From the sequence record MF996376: a stretch of 49,579 bases of DNA; one strand, 5' to 3'. Of the stretch, positions 6,148 through 46,879 are shown in pieces. The number at the start of each line of letters is the position of its first letter. Position 1 is the stretch's first letter. This stretch comes from Escherichia phage SRT8. A program made the position numbers and the translations under genes. The notes under the pieces are model-generated. The model worked only from the letters and a program-made list of their open reading frames with translations. It did no database searches and was not told the origin of the DNA.

Positions 6148-6375
6148 ATGAAGAAGAAATTTATTGTCGCGGCGATTGCGTTAGCTCTGATTGGTTGTGC
6201 TGATATGCCGAAAAGAACGTGTACCGCTATATACGAATCTAGATCTAACAAATACGAAGTGTATGTGTTCGGAACGAGGCTCAATGGAGGGGAGTTAATG
6301 TTACGCGCCGGATACCCGTTCTCATTTCATTATGTAAACGAAAGGCAATTCACCACTCACGACTGCAAACGATGA
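6148..6375 (+). CDS. Small outer-membrane lipoprotein, Cor-like superinfection-exclusion candidate
   Basis: Signal peptide with lipobox LIGC (MKKKFIVAAIALALIGCAD); 75 aa; own promoter; adjacent to tail genes. Confidence 0.55.
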   Translation: MKKKFIVAAIALALIGCADMPKRTCTAIYESRSNKYEVYVFGTRLNGGELMLRAGYPFSFHYVNERQFTTHDCKR

Positions 6376-27510: not shown

Positions 27511-27741
27511 CTATTTGATGACTTTAAAGTTAATCGGCTTGTGGTGGCTGTAAGCTTTTGCGTATACCGCCGACAGGTCGCCGAAACAGTCCCATTCGTC
27601 ACGCTTGCGATCGTATGTCAACCATACGCCCGTTTTATGTTCCGCGTCGTGGTGAAGCGCGAAGGCTACAACAACGAACGCACAAAATGCACCAAAACCG
27701 AAAATCGCGATTGCCGCCAGAATGTAAAGAACGATAGCCAT
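27511..27741 (-). CDS. Small membrane protein
   Basis: Hydrophobic N-terminal segment ILAAIAIFGFGAFCAFVVVAFAL; AAGGAG RBS. Confidence 0.45.
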   Translation of the reverse strand: MAIVLYILAAIAIFGFGAFCAFVVVAFALHHDAEHKTGVWLTYDRKRDEWDCFGDLSAVYAKAYSHHKPINFKVIK

Positions 27742-29384: not shown

Positions 29385-29582
29385 AATCTCCCAATCTTGC
29401 CCGGCAAGATGCACGCTATGTTTTAGCCGCGTGTAACATGGTGCGCCCAATTCGCCTTTGAAGCTGTAACAACCTTTAAACGAACCTTCTTCGCATAACT
29501 CCGCGTCGTAAATCTTAGTTGCCTTAATCCACGGCGAACCGTTATAAGTGGTGCGTATTCGGATCTTTTTCTTCTCTGTCAT
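29376..29582 (-). CDS. Hypothetical Cys-containing small protein
   Basis: ORF; GGGGAG RBS. Confidence 0.4.
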   Translation of the reverse strand: MTEKKKIRIRTTYNGSPWIKATKIYDAELCEEGSFKGCYSFKGELGAPCYTRLKHSVHLAGQDWEIVE

Positions 29583-29776
29583 AGTAATTTACTCCCCTTG
29601 CGGAATTCGTTTCGAAGCATATCGGCGGCGTCTAATCGACCATTTCGCCAGCCCAGCAAGTGACCGCCTAAGAACGCAAGAAACATCTCGGCGGCAACAA
29701 CGAAGCCGGAAGGCTGAAGCGCGATCGATAATGCGATGCAAGCCCAGCCGAAGATAAATAAAACCTTCATTTTCAT
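29579..29776 (-). CDS. Small membrane protein
   Basis: Two hydrophobic segments; cassette leader upstream. Confidence 0.45.
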   Translation of the reverse strand: MKMKVLFIFGWACIALSIALQPSGFVVAAEMFLAFLGGHLLGWRNGRLDAADMLRNEFRKGSKLL

Positions 29777-35018: not shown

Positions 35019-35039
35019 GGGTTTTAGCAATTCGTGCTA
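35019..35039 (-). promoter_or_regulatory. Palindromic element cassette
   Basis: AAATAGCACGAATTGCTAAAA with the TAG stop of the upstream gene inside it. Confidence 0.55.
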
Positions 35040-35318
35040 TTTAATCCATTCGCCTTTAATAATAAAGTCAGTGAACGCGTCAACCTTAGCGCCGCCACCA
35101 CAATTAAGCGGGTAGCTCCCTGTCGCGTCGTAAAAGTCCGCCAGGCGTTCGGCTATCCAGTTCATGAAACGCGCGTTACGTGACGCTACAGTGCCTTCGT
35201 ATGCTTGCTTAAATCCAAGTGCGGTTACGAATGCGATAAAGCGTTTTTGATAACCGGGCATCGCTTGCACGTTGGCGGCGAAGGCGTGTTGAAATTCAGT
35301 GCGGGTAAAGTTGTTCAT
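35037..35318 (-). CDS. Hypothetical protein
   Basis: Start at the ATG behind the cassette leader. Confidence 0.4.
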   Translation of the reverse strand: MNNFTRTEFQHAFAANVQAMPGYQKRFIAFVTALGFKQAYEGTVASRNARFMNWIAERLADFYDATGSYPLNCGGGAKVDAFTDFIIKGEWIK

Positions 35319-38399: not shown

Positions 38400-38551
38400 T
38401 TCGATATTACAACCACGAAACGAAATCATGGTATGTAATCGTAGGTCAACATGTACGCCGCTTAATGAAAGATGGTAGTTGGATTATCTCAGATCGCTAT
38501 AGTGTCGCCGACGTTGCGCATTATCCATTTACCTGGCATCGCGTCAAATAG
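38396..38551 (+). CDS. Hypothetical small protein (51 aa)
   Basis: ATGA overlap; its TAG stop lies in the next palindromic element. Confidence 0.35.
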   Translation: MIRYYNHETKSWYVIVGQHVRRLMKDGSWIISDRYSVADVAHYPFTWHRVK

Positions 38552-38566
38552 CACAAATTGCTAAAA
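38546..38566 (+). promoter_or_regulatory. Palindromic element cassette
   Basis: AAATAGCACAAATTGCTAAAA, hairpin GGGGTA...TACCCC, TGtTATAGT, leader. Confidence 0.55.
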
Positions 38567-41201: not shown

Positions 41202-41606
41202 ATGATGATGCTGTTACTTGAACTGTTTAAATTCTGCGAAGGTTACGATCGGTACACGCGACAGCACATCGCGAAATTCATATTCCAGCATAAGGAATCC
41301 GAAAGAATGGCGGCGGCGGCTGGGTTGCCGCATCGCGAATTCGTTAGCCTAATGTCGAAAGAGTTTTGCGCCCGGTGCATGACTGAAGGTTATTTAGATT
41401 GCATCAAAGGAGAGTATTTTTGCAAAGGGCGTTTAAAGCGCCCGCTAATGATGAAGCTCGTTTGCGTGGAAGGTTACGCGAACAGATACAATTATGAAAT
41501 GATGCACATTGAGGAATTGAGTGATGAAGATTTGTTCGGGAAAGGTCGAAATGTTGATAGATCGGAGCGTCGAATTTTGCGCAACGCACCAGCTTTCAGA
41601 AGATGA
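41202..41606 (+). CDS. Hypothetical Cys-rich protein
   Basis: ORF with AAGGTG RBS. Confidence 0.4.
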   Translation: MMMLLLELFKFCEGYDRYTRQHIAKFIFQHKESERMAAAAGLPHREFVSLMSKEFCARCMTEGYLDCIKGEYFCKGRLKRPLMMKLVCVEGYANRYNYEMMHIEELSDEDLFGKGRNVDRSERRILRNAPAFRR

Positions 41607-41724
41607 ATTCAACACGGCGCTAATGTCTCTTCTGTTGTCTTCGATGCGGGCGTCCGGTGAAACGTGTCACAATCTGGCGGACGGCGACGGCGTTTGCATA
41701 TTGAGCGTGACGCGATACCAATAG
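41551..41724 (+). CDS. Hypothetical small protein overlapping the previous gene
   Basis: ATG with AAAGG RBS; overlap of about 55 nt. Confidence 0.3.
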   Translation: MLIDRSVEFCATHQLSEDEFNTALMSLLLSSMRASGETCHNLADGDGVCILSVTRYQ

Positions 41725-41740
41725 CACTTTTTGTTAAAAC
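41720..41740 (+). promoter_or_regulatory. Palindromic element cassette
   Basis: ATAGCACTTTTTGTTAAAA then hairpin TACCC...GGGTA. Confidence 0.5.
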
Positions 41741-41794
41741 TACCCGGTTAATTCAGGGTATTATCATTTCATAGAAACAAAAGTAGAAAGAAAA

Positions 41795-42043
41795 ATGGCT
41801 ACTTACCGCGTTAACTTCAAATCAAATGCCCGCACCGACGAACGCAAAGTCGAAACTGTTACAATCCCGGATTGCGTACCGTTTGCAGCACGTAACCGCG
41901 CGATTTGCGCAACGTTAAACGTAATGGGATACGACTTCGCAGCCGATCCGATTATCGTTACTAAGGCGGTAACAATCCACGCCGTAGAATGCGGAATCCC
42001 TGATGAAGTGAAGGTCGCGGAAAGTATCGACATTCTCGCATAA
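41795..42043 (+). CDS. Hypothetical protein (last rightward early gene)
   Basis: ORF; followed by a bidirectional terminator. Confidence 0.45.
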   Translation: MATYRVNFKSNARTDERKVETVTIPDCVPFAARNRAICATLNVMGYDFAADPIIVTKAVTIHAVECGIPDEVKVAESIDILA

Positions 42044-42071
42044 AAAAGGAGGCTTTAAGCCTCCTTATTTT
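42042..42071. terminator. Bidirectional intrinsic terminator (AAAAAA-GGAGGCTT-TAAG-CCTCC-TTATTTT)
   Basis: Hairpin flanked by A- and T-runs between convergent genes. Confidence 0.7.
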
Positions 42072-42459
42072 GTTTCCTGTAACTGATTGACCACAACAGC
42101 CCCGCACAAATCAACCACGCCGCAATCATGCCGCCACCGAACCAGAATACAGCGCCTTCGCTACCGTTGTTTACTTCGATGCGTTCCGCCTGAATGGTTC
42201 CGGCCTTAATGCTTTCCGTCTTCTTAGTGGAGGAATCCACCTTGCCGACGTTGGAATCTTTGACCGACGTTTCGTTCTTCTGATCCTGTTTAGCTGTCAG
42301 GCCGACAGTCTGTTTTACGTTCTCCGCGCCGACTTGCGCCGTCACATCTGGCTTATTACCAATCAGGGAATCCAGCGGATTCATTGAACAGCCCGACAGC
42401 ACGATCGCGGGTAATGTAATGCACAATGCGCAAAATGTTGCTAATGCAAAATCTTTCAT
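42055..42459 (-). CDS. Unimolecular spanin (outer-membrane lipoprotein with C-terminal transmembrane domain)
   Basis: Lipobox LSGC after signal peptide, C-terminal [18 protein letters not shown] helix; last gene of lysis cassette. Confidence 0.65.
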
Positions 42460-42953
42460 TTCGTTAACTCCTTCATGCAGAATTTATATTCAATGTCGCG
42501 ACGGTTTTTAAGGCCGCGTGACTTTTCCATTTTTCCGGTTTTCGGATTGTAGAAGTAAACCCAATCATAAAGACGCGAACAAGCCTTCGTGAATCGCCCG
42601 GCGTTGACGTCTTTTAGTAAGGTTGATTTACGGAATGCCCCGCCTCCAACGTTGAACGTGAAGCTATACAGAGCCGCCCGCATGGTATCAGGAATCGGCA
42701 CTTTTACAGCGCTATCAACGTGCCGCTTCGCTACTTCGATGTGTTTGTAAAGTAGCGCGTCGCACTCTTTCTTCGTGTACGTCTTGCCTAAAATAACATC
42801 CTTCCCGGTAATGCCAGAACAGACCGTCCAGATCCCGGCGATATCCTTGTACGGCTTGTACCGGATGCCTTCGATTTCCTCAAGCAAGCCCGGCACAAGA
42901 ACAAGGGCGGCGGAAATTACTGTCGCCGCTACAGTGTTCTTGATTGCGCTCAT
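42456..42953 (-). CDS. Endolysin (T4-lysozyme-like muramidase), probably signal-anchor-release type
   Basis: Catalytic region [22 protein letters not shown] (Glu, 8 aa, Asp, 5 aa, Thr pattern) after a weakly hydrophobic N-terminal segment. Confidence 0.75.
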
Positions 42954-42955
42954 AG

Positions 42956-43171
42956 TTATTTATTCCGAATGTTGATTGCCGTTTTCAGATCTCCGGCGTC
43001 GATAGCCGCGCGGATAGCCTTGCTGTCGCGGTACTTCCAGTAAGCGCCCCAAACGCCGAAGCCTAAGAAACAAACGAAGGTTAGCCCGGCGATAACAAGC
43101 TGTCCTGTTGCCGCGCTAGTGATTGCAGCGCCGCCAGTGCCGGACGTTGCAGCGTGAATAAAGTCTTTCAT
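42956..43171 (-). CDS. Holin (small membrane protein, possible pinholin)
   Basis: 71 aa with hydrophobic helices, directly upstream of the endolysin; start taken at ATG 43171 (track start is GTG). Confidence 0.55.
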
Positions 43172-43293
43172 GAAATACCCCACAATAAAGTTTTAAGTTA
43201 GTGGGGATATAATAACGGAAGGTGGGCAGGAAAGGAACAGCACAAAAAGGAGGCATAAAGCCCCCTTTAGGATAGTGATTTGATTTGTATCAG

Positions 43294-43470
43294 TTATTTG
43301 ACAACAACGAATTCAAGATAATGTCCGCTTAACGGCGCTTGAATTGCCGATCCTTTGCCGTCGTAGATCTCATAAATCCCGCCGCCGTGGTGATAGCCGA
43401 TCGAATAGATTTCGTTAACGTGGAACGGTAAAGATTTAGAGTCGTTGCGAATACACTTAACGCGAGTCAT
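43294..43470 (-). CDS. Hypothetical small protein (58 aa), below the ORF-track cutoff
   Basis: ATG-initiated ORF between the peptide gene and holin. Confidence 0.3.
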   Translation of the reverse strand: MTRVKCIRNDSKSLPFHVNEIYSIGYHHGGGIYEIYDGKGSAIQAPLSGHYLEFVVVK

Positions 43471-43480
43471 GTTGTTTTCC

Positions 43481-43588
43481 TTAAAATCCGTTGAAGTTGC
43501 CAGCTAAAGACAGAACCCACAAGAAGAACCCGGTAACAGCTACGCCAGCAACGAAAGGTACTACGGTTTTGATGATGAAGTCTTTCAT
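43481..43588 (-). CDS. Small hydrophobic peptide (35 aa), possible membrane-active or lysis-timing peptide
   Basis: MKDFIIKTVVPFVAGVAVTGFFLWVLSLAGNFNGF behind a full cassette. Confidence 0.35.
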   Translation of the reverse strand: MKDFIIKTVVPFVAGVAVTGFFLWVLSLAGNFNGF

Positions 43589-43644
43589 TTGTCTATCTCC
43601 TTTGTTTTGATGGGGTAACTATAACTCGTTACCCCGCGTTTGTC

Positions 43645-43666
43645 TTTAGCTATTCGTGCTATTTAT
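43645..43666 (-). promoter_or_regulatory. Palindromic element cassette
   Basis: AAATAGCACGAATAGCTAAAG, hairpin GGGGTAAC/GTTACCCC, TATAGT, leader. Confidence 0.55.
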
Positions 43667-44796
43667 TCGGTCATTTCCGGGCGGTAGATGAAGCGCCCAA
43701 CTTCGCCGAATTTTTTGTCGTACACGATAACCGCCGCTTGTCGGTATGCTCTCCAGCCGCCCCGCGCCGCGTAAGCGTCTTTAGCGCCTAGCTGTCCGTG
43801 TACTTCGTCAATCCCTAGCGTGTGCTCGGTGATTGTTTGATGATGCCAATGTCCGCTATGCGTGTATACGTATTTGCTGTCGCCGAACTCTTCGCGGAAG
43901 TCCGCCGCCATAGCCGCTAAACGCGTGTCGGCTTTCTTCATCGTGTGACCGTGAGTGTAACCCAAAAGCGTTTTACCCCACTTCGTTTTATGTAGAATCA
44001 TCGGGCTAACATCGACATAGACGCGCGGTTCGTCGTCGTAATATGCCGCCATTGCAGCGCGTAGCCAAATCATTCCGGCTTGATCGTGATTGCCTTCAAT
44101 GATTTGCACTTCGACTTCTTCGTGTTTCTCAAGCATTCTTGAGATCGCGCGGCGCGTTGCCCGGATTGCCACGTAAACCAGTTTTGCATAGCGTGAATCT
44201 TGATCCAGAACGTGACCGCTTGCCGGGGTAACTGCGTCCAGACCGTCACTATGCAGGAAGTCACCACCGATTAACAGTACGGCTTTTTTGGCTTCAGGCG
44301 CTACGGTTACGGCGTAGTCGAAATACTTGTTCAACACTTCTTCGGCGATATCAGTAGAATAGTTTTCGCCGGATTCGTGTTTATGGGCTAACGCGCCGAT
44401 ATGAAGATCGAATACCGGGTAAAGCGCAAGCAAGCTTTCTTCAGTGTTCGGCGTTGCGTCGCTTGGCGTCGCTCGCGGAAGGTCTTCACAAAATGCGATT
44501 TGTGCCGCCTTCATTAGTTCGTAAATCTTTTCCTTGTCCTGATCGGTCTTAACCCAACGAACGACTTCGGAACCGTCCGCGCGAATCATTGTCGAAGTAC
44601 CTTTGACCGCGAAGCCTGTCGGGACGTTAGCCGATACGTGCGCGTTTCCGTGGAAGTGACCTTCTTTCGCTAACTTAGCGTGACGCGCTTCGACGGTTCG
44701 AATGTGCATACCGTATTTTTCTGCGATCTCGCGAAGGGTTAGGCCGTTGCTACGCTCTTCGATAAGCTGTTCGGTTGTGATTTTTGCAGTTGACAT
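43663..44796 (-). CDS. Calcineurin-like metallophosphoesterase with N-terminal helix-turn-helix domain
   Basis: Phosphoesterase motifs GDFLH, GNHD, GHTH, GHWH; N-terminal LTLREIAEKYGMHIRTV resembles an HTH. Confidence 0.6.
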   Translation of the reverse strand: MSTAKITTEQLIEERSNGLTLREIAEKYGMHIRTVEARHAKLAKEGHFHGNAHVSANVPTGFAVKGTSTMIRADGSEVVRWVKTDQDKEKIYELMKAAQIAFCEDLPRATPSDATPNTEESLLALYPVFDLHIGALAHKHESGENYSTDIAEEVLNKYFDYAVTVAPEAKKAVLLIGGDFLHSDGLDAVTPASGHVLDQDSRYAKLVYVAIRATRRAISRMLEKHEEVEVQIIEGNHDQAGMIWLRAAMAAYYDDEPRVYVDVSPMILHKTKWGKTLLGYTHGHTMKKADTRLAAMAADFREEFGDSKYVYTHSGHWHHQTITEHTLGIDEVHGQLGAKDAYAARGGWRAYRQAAVIVYDKKFGEVGRFIYRPEMTE

Positions 44797-44881
44797 ATTT
44801 TTACATCCTTACATTACAATTAGATAAATGATAGTGAAAGCTATTACGGGGGTGAATACTACACCAAAAAAGCCGAACATG

Positions 44882-45127
44882 CTACTTCTTCCTAAGCCAG
44901 TTTACAAGGTCTGAAGGCTTCATACCTTCGCCGCCATTGTCGAAAATCATCATGTTTTTAGCCGGGCTATACCACATCTTTATATAACCGCCGCCGCGAC
45001 TGCATAGAACCGTTTCGAAGTCGGAAGGCAACCAATCAGCGAAAGGGATTATTTTAAACACTTCGCCTTCGAACTCTGTTTCCGGGTAACTGTCAAAGTT
45101 ACCGTTTAAGCCGGGTAGCCTTTCCAT
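44882..45127 (-). CDS. Hypothetical protein
   Basis: ORF. Confidence 0.4.
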   Translation of the reverse strand: MERLPGLNGNFDSYPETEFEGEVFKIIPFADWLPSDFETVLCSRGGGYIKMWYSPAKNMMIFDNGGEGMKPSDLVNWLRKK

Positions 45128-45371
45128 TCTTCTGACTCTCCTTAAATTCCTTCATTATGCGCTTACCTTCTTCCCGGTAATATTCTAGACCGGGAACAGC
45201 CGGGACGCGGTGACATTTGCGTGGAAGCTCTTCAATGTAGGTTATCTTCCCGTTACCAATTATGCTAACGTCTTTTATATCTAAATACTTAGCAATTAGT
45301 GCGATCCCGTCCGCAAGCCCTGTTTCTTTTGCGTGTTCCCACACTGCCCGCTTGCCTGATTCTTTAATCAT
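45099..45371 (-). CDS. Hypothetical protein
   Basis: ORF, overlaps neighbours. Confidence 0.4.
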   Translation of the reverse strand: MIKESGKRAVWEHAKETGLADGIALIAKYLDIKDVSIIGNGKITYIEELPRKCHRVPAVPGLEYYREEGKRIMKEFKESQKNGKATRLKR

Positions 45372-45614: not shown

Positions 45615-45634
45615 GTTTAGCAATTAGTGCGATC
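45615..45634 (-). promoter_or_regulatory. Palindromic element cassette (variant GATCGCACTAATTGCTAAAC)
   Basis: Contains the stop of the upstream gene; hairpin and TATTAT box follow. Confidence 0.5.
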
Positions 45635-46567: not shown

Positions 46568-46879
46568 TTATGCTCCGTAAATTTCGCACTGAAGGTTAGT
46601 AATTTCGTGGCTATTGGAAAGCATCTTCCCGGTGAATCTGTCGCGAATCAATGCCGTGTTTTTGAAGAACTGATAGCGCGACTTGTAATTCAGGACAGAA
46701 CGAAAATCTTGTCCGTGAACTTTACCGCCAATCGTTAACGCTTCGGTTACGGCGTTATATTCGATCTGCTCGGTGTATTCGTGACCGTCGAACGTGTAGT
46801 CGCAATCATAATTAATATTGAAATCCTTCGCGCTAACTGAAGCGGCGAATAACATTGCGAGAAGTGCTAATTTTTTCAT
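46568..46879 (-). CDS. Secreted / periplasmic small protein
   Basis: N-terminal signal peptide MKKLALLAMLFAASVSA; cassette leader upstream. Confidence 0.45.
   Translation of the reverse strand: MKKLALLAMLFAASVSAKDFNINYDCDYTFDGHEYTEQIEYNAVTEALTIGGKVHGQDFRSVLNYKSRYQFFKNTALIRDRFTGKMLSNSHEITNLQCEIYGA

Follow-up and report, generated by a model that had tools for sequence, protein, structure and literature searches.

A predicted membrane microprotein family of T1-like phages, represented upstream of the lysis operon of Escherichia phage SRT8

In lysis systems of the phage 21 and T1 type, an endolysin bearing a signal-anchor-release (SAR) segment reaches the membrane by Sec-dependent export and is kept there in an inactive state, a pinholin depolarizes the membrane at a set time and so brings about release of the enzyme, and a spanin then fuses the inner and outer membranes, the spanin of phage 21 itself being of the two-component Rz/Rz1 type. 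Here we describe the corresponding locus of Escherichia phage SRT8 (sequence record MF996376), for which the window, that is, the whole stretch of DNA analysed, spans 49,579 nucleotides, and in particular a 35-residue hydrophobic peptide encoded ahead of its lysis cassette. A core of holin, endolysin and spanin occurs in 508 of 522 Drexlerviridae (PMC13164509), and the same April 2026 paper reports a 'standalone SH3' protein in 188 of those 522 phages, always near the lysis module, and proposes it, in phage KanT1, as a cell-wall-binding helper of the endolysin. The direct repeat (DR) that recurs in the window has likewise been reported in phage TLS (PMC11447400). The cassette, its SH3 neighbour and the DR motif are already known; what is of use here is the peptide family.

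The evidence strongly supports a locus in two parts. One is a canonical T1-type lysis operon, set off by a terminator and -10-like element of its own on the upstream side and by a bidirectional terminator on the downstream side. The other, lying immediately upstream of it, is a separate accessory unit of two genes headed by a DR-type promoter-like module; their products are a single-pass inner-membrane microprotein of 35 aa and a cytoplasmic SH3-like protein of 58 aa (DUF7244). The 3.1-kb region matches Escherichia phage BrunoManser (Bas12; Drexlerviridae, Tunavirinae, Sertoctavirus) from end to end at 98.3% identity; the values for Citrobacter phage IME-JL8 and phage IME347 are 95.1% and 77.6%. 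On sequence grounds the SRT8 window belongs to Sertoctavirus (Drexlerviridae). A sequence-only reading of the window had placed holin, endolysin and spanin genes here together with two small membrane-peptide genes upstream; all five features were recovered where it had put them, on the minus strand, and both small open reading frames (ORFs) proved to be real genes, as judged by selection on the first (ratio of nonsynonymous to synonymous substitution rates, dN/dS, of 0.08) and by the match of the second to DUF7244 at 1.8e-29. The BrunoManser record already annotates all five, as bas12_0041 (35 aa), bas12_0042 (58 aa), holin, endolysin and unimolecular spanin (u-spanin), the first two under the name of hypothetical proteins.

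The peptide gene and its family

The peptide gene and the elements ahead of it are as follows.

43645-43662, minus strand: DR motif ATAGCACGAATAGCTAAA, which abuts the stop codon of the gp16-like exonuclease gene and marks the start of the peptide transcription unit
43611-43646, minus strand: promoter-like module from a consensus scan, AAGACA (43646-43641), a 17-nt spacer and TATAGT (43623-43618)
43636-43611, minus strand: inverted repeat GGGGTAAC/GTTACCCC holding the promoter-like module
43597-43602, minus strand: Shine-Dalgarno sequence AAGGAG of the peptide gene, read from the sequence, 8 nt upstream of the ATG
43481-43588, minus strand: gene of the single-pass membrane microprotein (35 aa, bas12_0041), assigned from dN/dS, hydrophobicity, an AlphaFold2 (AF2) model and its family

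That the 35-aa gene is real and its product (MKDFIIKTVVPFVAGVAVTGFFLWVLSLAGNFNGF) inserted in the membrane is, in our estimate, very likely. Compared with IME347, the peptide frame carries 15 synonymous and eight nonsynonymous differences, corresponding to a pS of 0.62, a pN of 0.10 and the dN/dS of 0.08 given above; in more distant pairs the synonymous sites are saturated and pN is about 0.3, and dN/dS ranges from 0.08 to 0.4. A GGAG or AGGA stands at equal distance from the start in 12 of 13 homologues, the upstream sequence of Ec_L1 having ended short of the start. An upstream ORF that serves translational coupling or as a leader, or else an annotation artefact, would also be expected to look in part like this gene, which invariably comes first behind a DR leader, has the next gene tightly behind it, and is omitted from some records or annotated on the wrong strand in others (the latter in IME-JL8). 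We nevertheless regard a nonfunctional ORF as very improbable: purifying selection on the amino acids is strong, the C-terminal motif described below is invariant across subfamilies whose DNA is saturated at synonymous sites, and that motif is retained in three different genomic contexts.

Annotation of the gene in public records is inconsistent. An opposite-strand ORF is given in IME-JL8; the gene is unannotated in the IME347 RefSeq record, in Sd1, in Motto and in many Klebsiella phages; and elsewhere it has been assigned N-terminally extended starts that yield 48-59 aa. The inconsistent entries are L002 2783-2932 (minus strand), L003 2819-2926, P0002, P0003, P0011 and L012 2387-2566. The conserved start is an MK or MT codon behind GGAG or AGGA.

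Relatives were collected by an exhaustive search with hidden Markov models, in which a profile of eight homologues, run against 1.84 billion representative proteins, retrieved 17 clusters (50% identity) at E ≤ 0.001. Members share a 34-38-aa core, and several of the longer annotated versions start too early. Every context examined (16 of the 17 clusters) is T1-like, the one further cluster, P0005, having been assigned to its context by sequence similarity rather than looked up, and the family appears to be a membrane microprotein restricted to Drexlerviridae. The peptide has no match in Pfam, PHROGs, NCBIfam or PADLOC; in the databases it figures only as 'hypothetical protein', and in the literature we found no paper that discusses the family or its function.

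The hydrophobicity of the peptide, noted already in the sequence-only reading, supports one transmembrane segment, with residues 12-30 as the best 19-residue window (summed apparent free energy, dG, of +0.4 kcal/mol), and AF2 models residues 1-31 as one helix. In the C-terminal alignment the last 13 residues are near-invariant and read LWVIxLA(G/S)NFxG(F/W) followed by the stop codon; this uncharged motif carries 1.9-4.3 bits per position, with at least 3.3 at all but two, and is preceded by an N-terminal half that is variable and hydrophobic across the family. Since basic residues favour the N-terminal over the C-terminal side in 11 of the 17 members, we predict, with low confidence, an N-in/C-out topology.

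These features bear on whether the peptide could itself damage the membrane, as a type I toxin or mini-holin that either aids depolarization, and with it the triggering of the pinholin and SAR-endolysin pathway, or stops the energy metabolism of the host. In size, and in having one hydrophobic helix, the peptide resembles depolarizing peptides such as Hok, TisB and Ldr, and its gene combines a strong Shine-Dalgarno site with a promoter-proximal position. Pore-forming peptides, however, are expected to show amphipathic or charged faces and loose sequence constraint, unlike the precise, uncharged 13-residue C-terminal motif conserved here; expression from a unit of the DR type, which heads replication genes as well, would risk premature killing; and the family is absent from T1. 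We give a membrane-damaging function little credence.

The DR motif, ATAGCAC-N5-GCTAAA, is present in 30 copies in the window (≤2 mismatches) against 1.3 expected and in 22 copies in T1, oriented with transcription. At most of the copies in the window, a succession of DR, variable GC hairpin, TATAGT or TATAAT and a CCCATCGAAAC-like leader ends approximately 55-58 nt before the first ATG, and such a module precedes every peptide homologue examined, with the peptide always the first gene after it. The DR-led module presumably has promoter activity, and its layout suggests a class of phage promoter in which the DR acts like an UP element or binds a regulator; a literature search for a T1-like transcriptome found none. 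Leaders that look alike in the three genomic contexts of the peptide had at first suggested a mobile cassette of promoter plus peptide, an idea rejected because most genes led by a DR in the window stand behind this succession of DR, hairpin, -10 and leader; leaders resemble one another across DR units in general, which is therefore no proof that the peptide moved with a promoter of its own. The DR contains a TAGCA/TGCTA dyad, and its copies are concentrated in the non-structural regions at 27-49 kb, further examples lying at 45616-45633 (minus strand), 38548-38565 (plus strand) and 35023-35040 (minus strand).

The family occupies three genomic contexts. In 13 of the 17 clusters and three IMG/VR contigs the gene order is exonuclease, peptide, DUF7244, T1-type holin, lysozyme and spanin, an arrangement shared by Sertoctavirus, Badaguanvirus, Eclunavirus, KL3 and nine metagenomic lineages; peptide stop and SH3 start lie at most 2 nt apart or overlap in 10 of the 14 lineages in which the two genes adjoin. 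Four of the 17 clusters (P0005 among them) have the peptide at cor or dam loci: it is followed by cor, which encodes a superinfection-exclusion lipoprotein, in Rogunavirinae (Sd1, Opt-719, Rao1) and phage Motto, and by dam in Webervirus Sushi and Changchunvirus PHB17. A tblastn search returned 157 positive phage records (E ≤ 1), mostly Webervirus isolates, and a degenerate-motif scan of IMG/VR returned seven loci including the window itself, too few for context statistics. The peptide and DUF7244 are distributed as follows.

This window: peptide present, adjoining the SH3 gene; DUF7244 present
T1: peptide absent; DUF7244 present
Sd1: peptide present, at cor; DUF7244 present, at the holin gene
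PHB17: peptide present, at dam; DUF7244 present, at the holin gene
Sushi: peptide present, at dam; DUF7244 absent

Because the gene is found in three contexts and because it and DUF7244 are present or absent independently of each other, we conclude that it is a dispensable, relocatable accessory gene, bound obligatorily to neither the lysis cassette nor the SH3 gene.

In Rogunavirinae the peptide gene lies 1-10 nt upstream of cor; the cor homologue of the window (6148-6366, plus strand; 59% identical to T1 Cor) is far from the peptide and has no adjoining copy of it. The exonuclease-DUF7244 junction is a variable slot, which is filled by the 35-aa peptide here (43481-43662), by an HNH endonuclease in T1, by a 76-aa soluble ORF in Sd1, by a polynucleotide kinase and an NTPase in KL3, Ec_L1 and Sushi, and by extra small ORFs in one metagenomic lineage; wherever this was examined, a DR motif lay at the edge of the slot. 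The stretches compared were L008 41956-42582, L030 750-1215, L009 and L010 1335-2460, and L020 2422-3405.

The gene at 43663-44796 (minus strand), on the far side of the DR, is annotated as a 'DNA repair exonuclease' and is homologous to T1 gp16 (phrog_704). Its product shows weak N-terminal helix-turn-helix matches (HTH_23, E 0.009; phrog_664 and phrog_3855, about 1e-3) and also a weak metallophosphatase match, and the annotators of Sushi noted a sigma-70 region-4-like domain in the homologue; it could be a DNA-binding regulator, possibly a reader of the DR dyad. Other small ORFs of the window have strongly hydrophobic N-termini, namely 29579-29776 (65 aa), 27511-27741 (76 aa) and 46568-46879 (103 aa), all on the minus strand; two of the three are first genes after DR modules, and the 103-aa ORF is directly upstream of dam, which is the position of the peptide in Webervirus.

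The lysis operon and the SH3-like protein

The genes and signals downstream of the peptide are as follows.

43294-43470, minus strand: gene of a soluble SH3-like protein (58 aa, DUF7244, T1 gp14 homologue, bas12_0042; PF23896 at 1.8e-29, phrog_4788 at 4.6e-32)
43245-43269, minus strand: intrinsic terminator TAAAGGGGGCTTTATGCCTCCTTTT, then TGTG, between the SH3 and holin genes (dG -13.9 kcal/mol)
43209-43214, minus strand: -10-like hexamer TATTAT, candidate holin-operon promoter, 30 nt after the terminator
42956-43171, minus strand: T1-type holin gene, a predicted class II pinholin (71 aa; phrog_2877 at 4.5e-35; 66% identity to T1 gp13)
42456-42953, minus strand: gene of a SAR-type endolysin (165 aa; GH24, T4-lysozyme fold; PF00959 at 3.3e-37; 65% identity to T1 gp12)
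42055-42459, minus strand: gene of a u-spanin (134 aa; phrog_1804 at 3.1e-45; 42% identity to T1 gp11, E 4e-28)
42046-42066, both strands: bidirectional intrinsic terminator from a terminator scan, with a 9-bp stem and T-runs on either strand

The cassette is of the known T1 type, and nothing in it is new in itself. The translational coupling of holin, lysozyme-type endolysin and u-spanin, already noted from the sequence, is seen in the 2 nt that separate the holin TAA from the endolysin ATG and in the ATGA overlap of the endolysin and spanin genes, with AAGGAG 8 nt upstream. The holin starts at the ATG at 43171, the methionine from which the PHROG profile aligns and which the BrunoManser annotation also uses; the GTG at 43183, reported as the ORF start, would add only Gly-Tyr-Phe. 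A dual-start antiholin initiated at that GTG was rejected, since the extension is uncharged and the Shine-Dalgarno sequence is supplied by the GGGG ahead of the ATG. Peptide, holin and spanin (starts at 43588, 43171 and 42459) all open with Met-Lys-Asp-Phe (MKDF). Descent of the peptide from the 5' end of the holin gene was considered on this account and set aside: by inspection, nucleotide similarity stops after about 14 nt, and the common start is probably a coincidence or a translation-initiation preference and not a duplication.

The weakly hydrophobic endolysin N-terminus, read earlier as a sign of a SAR enzyme paired with a pinholin, agrees with the composition, the hydrophobicity sum and the alignment on which we base the call. 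The best match of the endolysin in the Protein Data Bank is 3HDE, the SAR endolysin R21 of phage 21 (E 7.3e-43), in an alignment that enters the N-terminal hydrophobic segment, or SAR domain, and that superimposes the triad E28-X8-D37-X5-T43 on that of R21. Nine of the 22 residues from 3 to 24 are Ala, Gly, Ser or Thr (41%), and residues 6-24 sum to an apparent dG of +3.3 kcal/mol (a simple Hessa-scale sum), compared with -0.1 to -0.3 kcal/mol on the same scale for the stable transmembrane domains (TMDs) of holin and spanin. The segment matches a signal-anchor-release sequence, and export and release are predicted accordingly. In the holin, residues 25-43 form one strong TMD (dG -0.3), while residues 4-22 are very weakly hydrophobic (dG +7.2) and rich in Ala, Gly, Ser and Thr, which fits a SAR-like first TMD. 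The original T1 annotation credits the holin with a 'single transmembrane domain', the first segment being so weakly hydrophobic that T1 gp13 was first annotated as single-pass; the family has since been predicted to have two TMDs and to be a pinholin (PMC11447400; likewise the Sushi annotation). The predicted pinholin gene adjoins and is coupled to the R21-like SAR endolysin gene, and in published annotations of T1, TLS and Sushi the three cassette members are likewise called a pinholin, a SAR endolysin and a u-spanin (PMC11447400, PMC13164509). The spanin gene closes the cassette, as gp11 does in T1. Its product carries a lipobox, LSGC, whose Cys24 precedes a Ser, a residue that does not cause retention in the inner membrane, and near its C-terminus a TMD (residues 104-122, dG -0.1) with a basic tail, YRKQNKEA.

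An equivalent GC hairpin with T-run precedes the holin gene in 17 of 17 lineages (dG -12.8 to -17.1), the stem sequences differing, and is kept in T1, in Sd1 and even in Sushi, which lacks the SH3 gene and has an NTPase gene upstream instead. In 16 of 17 lineages the terminator is followed, at a distance of 26-31 nt, by a -10-like hexamer (usually TATTAT, TATCAT or TATGAT), and the column block GTTATTAT is conserved in the alignment of this pre-holin region (A2). Because of this terminator and the hexamer that follows it, the holin operon looks like a unit of its own and the upstream genes like the tail of another; there is no DR motif between the SH3 and holin genes, and the layout suggests a dedicated non-DR promoter as a candidate for the lysis operon. 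The spacer (43209-43293, minus strand, in the window) shows a box AATCAxCAccTTAC and the hairpin architecture in 17 of 17 Drexlerviridae lineages, independently of which gene lies upstream; further pre-holin spacers are L008 42760-42877, L030 462-575 and L028 34346-34471. At the other end of the operon, the position of 42046-42066 carries an annotated terminator in T1 and Sushi as well. An 82-aa ORF (41795-42043, plus strand; phrog_30053) converges on the spanin gene and uses this terminator jointly with it. An Rfam scan of 41500-45200 gave no match.

The sequence-only reading had counted the 58-aa ORF as a second membrane-peptide gene, and this part of it does not stand: the product has no hydrophobic segment and no signal peptide, and it belongs to DUF7244 (102 bits against PF23896, for a gathering cut-off of 27) with 72% identity to T1 gp14. 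The gene starts 10 nt after the peptide stop codon. An AF2 model from a 12-sequence alignment (predicted local distance difference test, pLDDT, of 93) shows five strands in an SH3-like barrel, and nearly all of the top 50 Foldseek matches in the Protein Data Bank are SH3 domains with template-modelling (TM) scores of 0.55-0.64, none of them significant (best E 0.26), as expected because the fold is so small. The model agrees with the clan assignment reported in PMC13164509.

The endolysin-helper role proposed there for the standalone SH3 protein faces a difficulty, as the protein, lacking an export signal, would stay cytoplasmic until lysis and would not be passed to the periplasm by a pinholin. 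The proposal is also weakened by the conserved terminator that insulates the SH3 gene transcriptionally from the holin, an arrangement that tempers the published claim of the gene as a component of the lysis module.

The close packing of the two accessory genes raises the alternative that peptide and DUF7244 form a two-part module, in which the conserved tail of the peptide would keep the SH3-like barrel tethered at the inner membrane. Short peptide tails are typical ligands of SH3 folds, and the genes adjoin in 14 lineages with the tight spacing described above in 10 of them; the spacing is equally tight before cor and dam, however, and therefore says nothing specific about SH3. Each gene also occurs alone (SH3 only in T1, peptide only in Sushi), Sd1 and PHB17 keep the two at separate loci, and the predicted N-in/C-out topology would put the conserved tail across the membrane from the signal-less SH3 protein. 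We modelled a fused AF2 construct of SH3, a 25-residue (GGGGS)5 linker and the peptide with a free C-terminus from a 14-row paired alignment, a run that returned neither predicted aligned errors nor coordinates: the predicted TM-score (pTM) was 0.44, the FNGF tail was unstructured, there was no ordered contact region, and confidence in the SH3 part fell from 93 to approximately 88. The outcome is a weak negative for a peptide-SH3 complex, and we consider such a tether improbable.

What the peptide may do

The sequence-only reading had suggested that the peptide is an antiholin-like lysis timing factor or another membrane-active factor. As a trans-acting regulator, antiholin-like or releasin-like, it would delay triggering or tune release by pairing in the membrane with the second TMD of the pinholin or with the endolysin's SAR domain; joint action with the cytoplasmic SH3 protein is conceivable, on the model of RI and RIII of T4. 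Its single TMD is of a size for helix-helix pairing, its gene lies one gene upstream of a T1-type holin in most clusters and in the three IMG/VR contigs, no DR promoter intervenes, so that read-through of the terminator could co-express the two, and the neighbouring SH3 gene has been proposed independently as a lysis accessory (PMC13164509). Set against this are the structurally conserved terminator and the SH3 gene that separate peptide and holin (the terminator in 17 of 17 lineages), the retention of the peptide at cor and dam, unlinked to lysis, in whole subfamilies, and the contrast between its near-invariant motif and the variable TMDs of the holins. The families of holin, endolysin and spanin are all shared by T1, which has no copy of the peptide, and the 157 positive phage records (E ≤ 1) compare with the 522 Drexlerviridae counted in PMC13164509, 508 of which carry the lysis core. 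The peptide is neither encoded within the holin gene nor co-transcribed uninterruptedly with it, does not co-occur with the holin family, and bears no similarity to known antiholin families in Pfam, PHROG, NCBIfam or PADLOC. That 13 of 17 clusters share one position is not independent evidence either way, because it largely reflects common synteny.

On balance, a lysis-timing function is conceivable but doubtful; an antiholin role in particular is possible, if unsupported, and 'another membrane-active factor' is still a fair description of the peptide. Less likely again is that it represents a new, unusually small class of trans-acting regulator of the pinholin/SAR-endolysin pathway, alone or as the membrane half of a pair with the DUF7244 SH3 protein, which, on the T4 RI/RIII analogy, may set lysis timing in T1-like phages through the LWVIxLA(G/S)NFxG(F/W) epitope.

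We tentatively favour, short of calling it probable, the reading of the peptide as an accessory microprotein that acts autonomously and whose C-terminal epitope binds a conserved target in the envelope. Such a peptide would be a dispensable and relocatable accessory outside the core lysis cassette and would have no obligate SH3 partner. It would probably insert as a single helix, N-in/C-out, with the variable N-terminal half as an anchor only and the invariant half, LWVIxLA(G/S)NFxG(F/W)-COOH, in the outer leaflet and at the periplasmic face of the membrane, where it would bind a slowly evolving envelope protein. The target is taken to be conserved because the last 13 peptide residues are near-invariant while the holins of the same lineages diverge, being merely 41-66% identical to T1 gp13, and we judge a conserved enterobacterial inner-membrane or periplasmic-face protein a likelier partner than the phage holin. 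A host-envelope partner would in turn point to a function of the host-takeover or superinfection-exclusion type. Small hydrophobic proteins are also encoded at the head of other DR-led units in the window (e.g., 29579-29776).

Several points weigh against an envelope target. The argument from motif conservation is soft. The dominant site of the gene, directly before the lysis cassette in 16 independent samples, is by guilt by association what one would predict for a lysis regulator, and terminators in phage operons are often leaky, so that, with no DR between the peptide promoter and the holin, read-through could co-express them. Furthermore, the topology call is weak, as several members have Lys at position -2 and the Rogunavirinae members lack N-terminal charge; were the peptide N-out/C-in, its invariant end would face both the conserved juxtamembrane WKYRDSKA of the holin and the cytoplasmic SH3 protein.

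Whatever its function, the useful residue of this analysis is a well-defined family of 34-38-aa membrane microproteins whose gene is often missed, mis-started or assigned to the wrong strand by gene callers. The peptide is present in a phage of the BASEL collection (Bas12) that grows on E. coli K-12 and is therefore experimentally accessible. Should it regulate lysis, no smaller trans-acting regulator would be known for a pinholin system; if it has a host envelope target, the motif would be a ready-made probe for that target; and a phenotype of the peptide would have to be shown before specialists were surprised.

Comparison with described systems

The cassette parallels that of T1 (gp13 holin, gp12 endolysin, gp11 u-spanin) in gene order, lengths and coupling, with identities of 66%, 65% and 42%, and the two phages share the pre-holin terminator, the downstream bidirectional terminator and the upstream DUF7244 gene (gp14). 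They differ between the gp16-like exonuclease and gp14, where T1 has an HNH endonuclease (gp15), and no homologue of the 35-aa peptide is found anywhere in the T1 genome. Phage 21 is matched in its endolysin R21 (3HDE, 3HDF), which equals the enzyme described here in length (165 aa) and shares its Glu-8-Asp-5-Thr triad, and in the pairing of a SAR endolysin with a 71-aa holin that has a weak first segment and a strong second TMD. Unlike S21, the holin belongs to the T1 family (phrog_2877) and lacks a charged dual-start antiholin form, and a u-spanin takes the place of the two-component spanin.

The 58-aa ORF is of the same family as the standalone SH3 of KanT1 and occupies the same site between DNA-repair exonuclease and holin; the 35-aa peptide, which precedes SH3 in many lineages, is not mentioned in that study (PMC13164509).

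The peptide can be set beside the described antiholins and SAR regulators (lambda S107, S21-71, T4 RI and RIII, P1 LydB and the Mu gp25 releasin) in that it is a small membrane protein whose gene lies close to a holin/SAR-endolysin pair, and a lysis-timing role is therefore conceivable. It shows no sequence similarity to any of these proteins, however, and at 35 aa is much smaller; it is neither contained in the holin gene nor co-transcribed with it without interruption, and in other subfamilies it lies at cor or dam.

In its architecture the peptide resembles AcrZ, MgtS, MgrB, KdpF and CydX, small membrane proteins with regulatory roles in bacteria: it is a single-pass protein in the range of approximately 30-50 aa, and constraint on its sequence falls mainly on one stretch of the helix plus a short tail, which is the pattern to be expected if it binds a larger membrane protein. 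A second parallel is with phage exclusion proteins, such as T4 Imm and the Cor-associated genes, since in Rogunavirinae the peptide forms a two-gene unit with the exclusion lipoprotein Cor. Homology is lacking in either case, and unlike proteins of these types the peptide family is restricted to Drexlerviridae-like phages.

Finally, the DR repeats of T1-like phages (aaATAGCACnnnTTGnTAAAA; described in phage TLS, PMC11447400) stand ahead of the peptide as the first gene after a module of repeat, hairpin and -10-like element. The apparent movement of the peptide among three DR-led sites resembles the promoter-stem-loop shuffling of small genes by the PeSL cassettes of T4-type phages, and the DR would be a candidate for a role in transcription or recombination.

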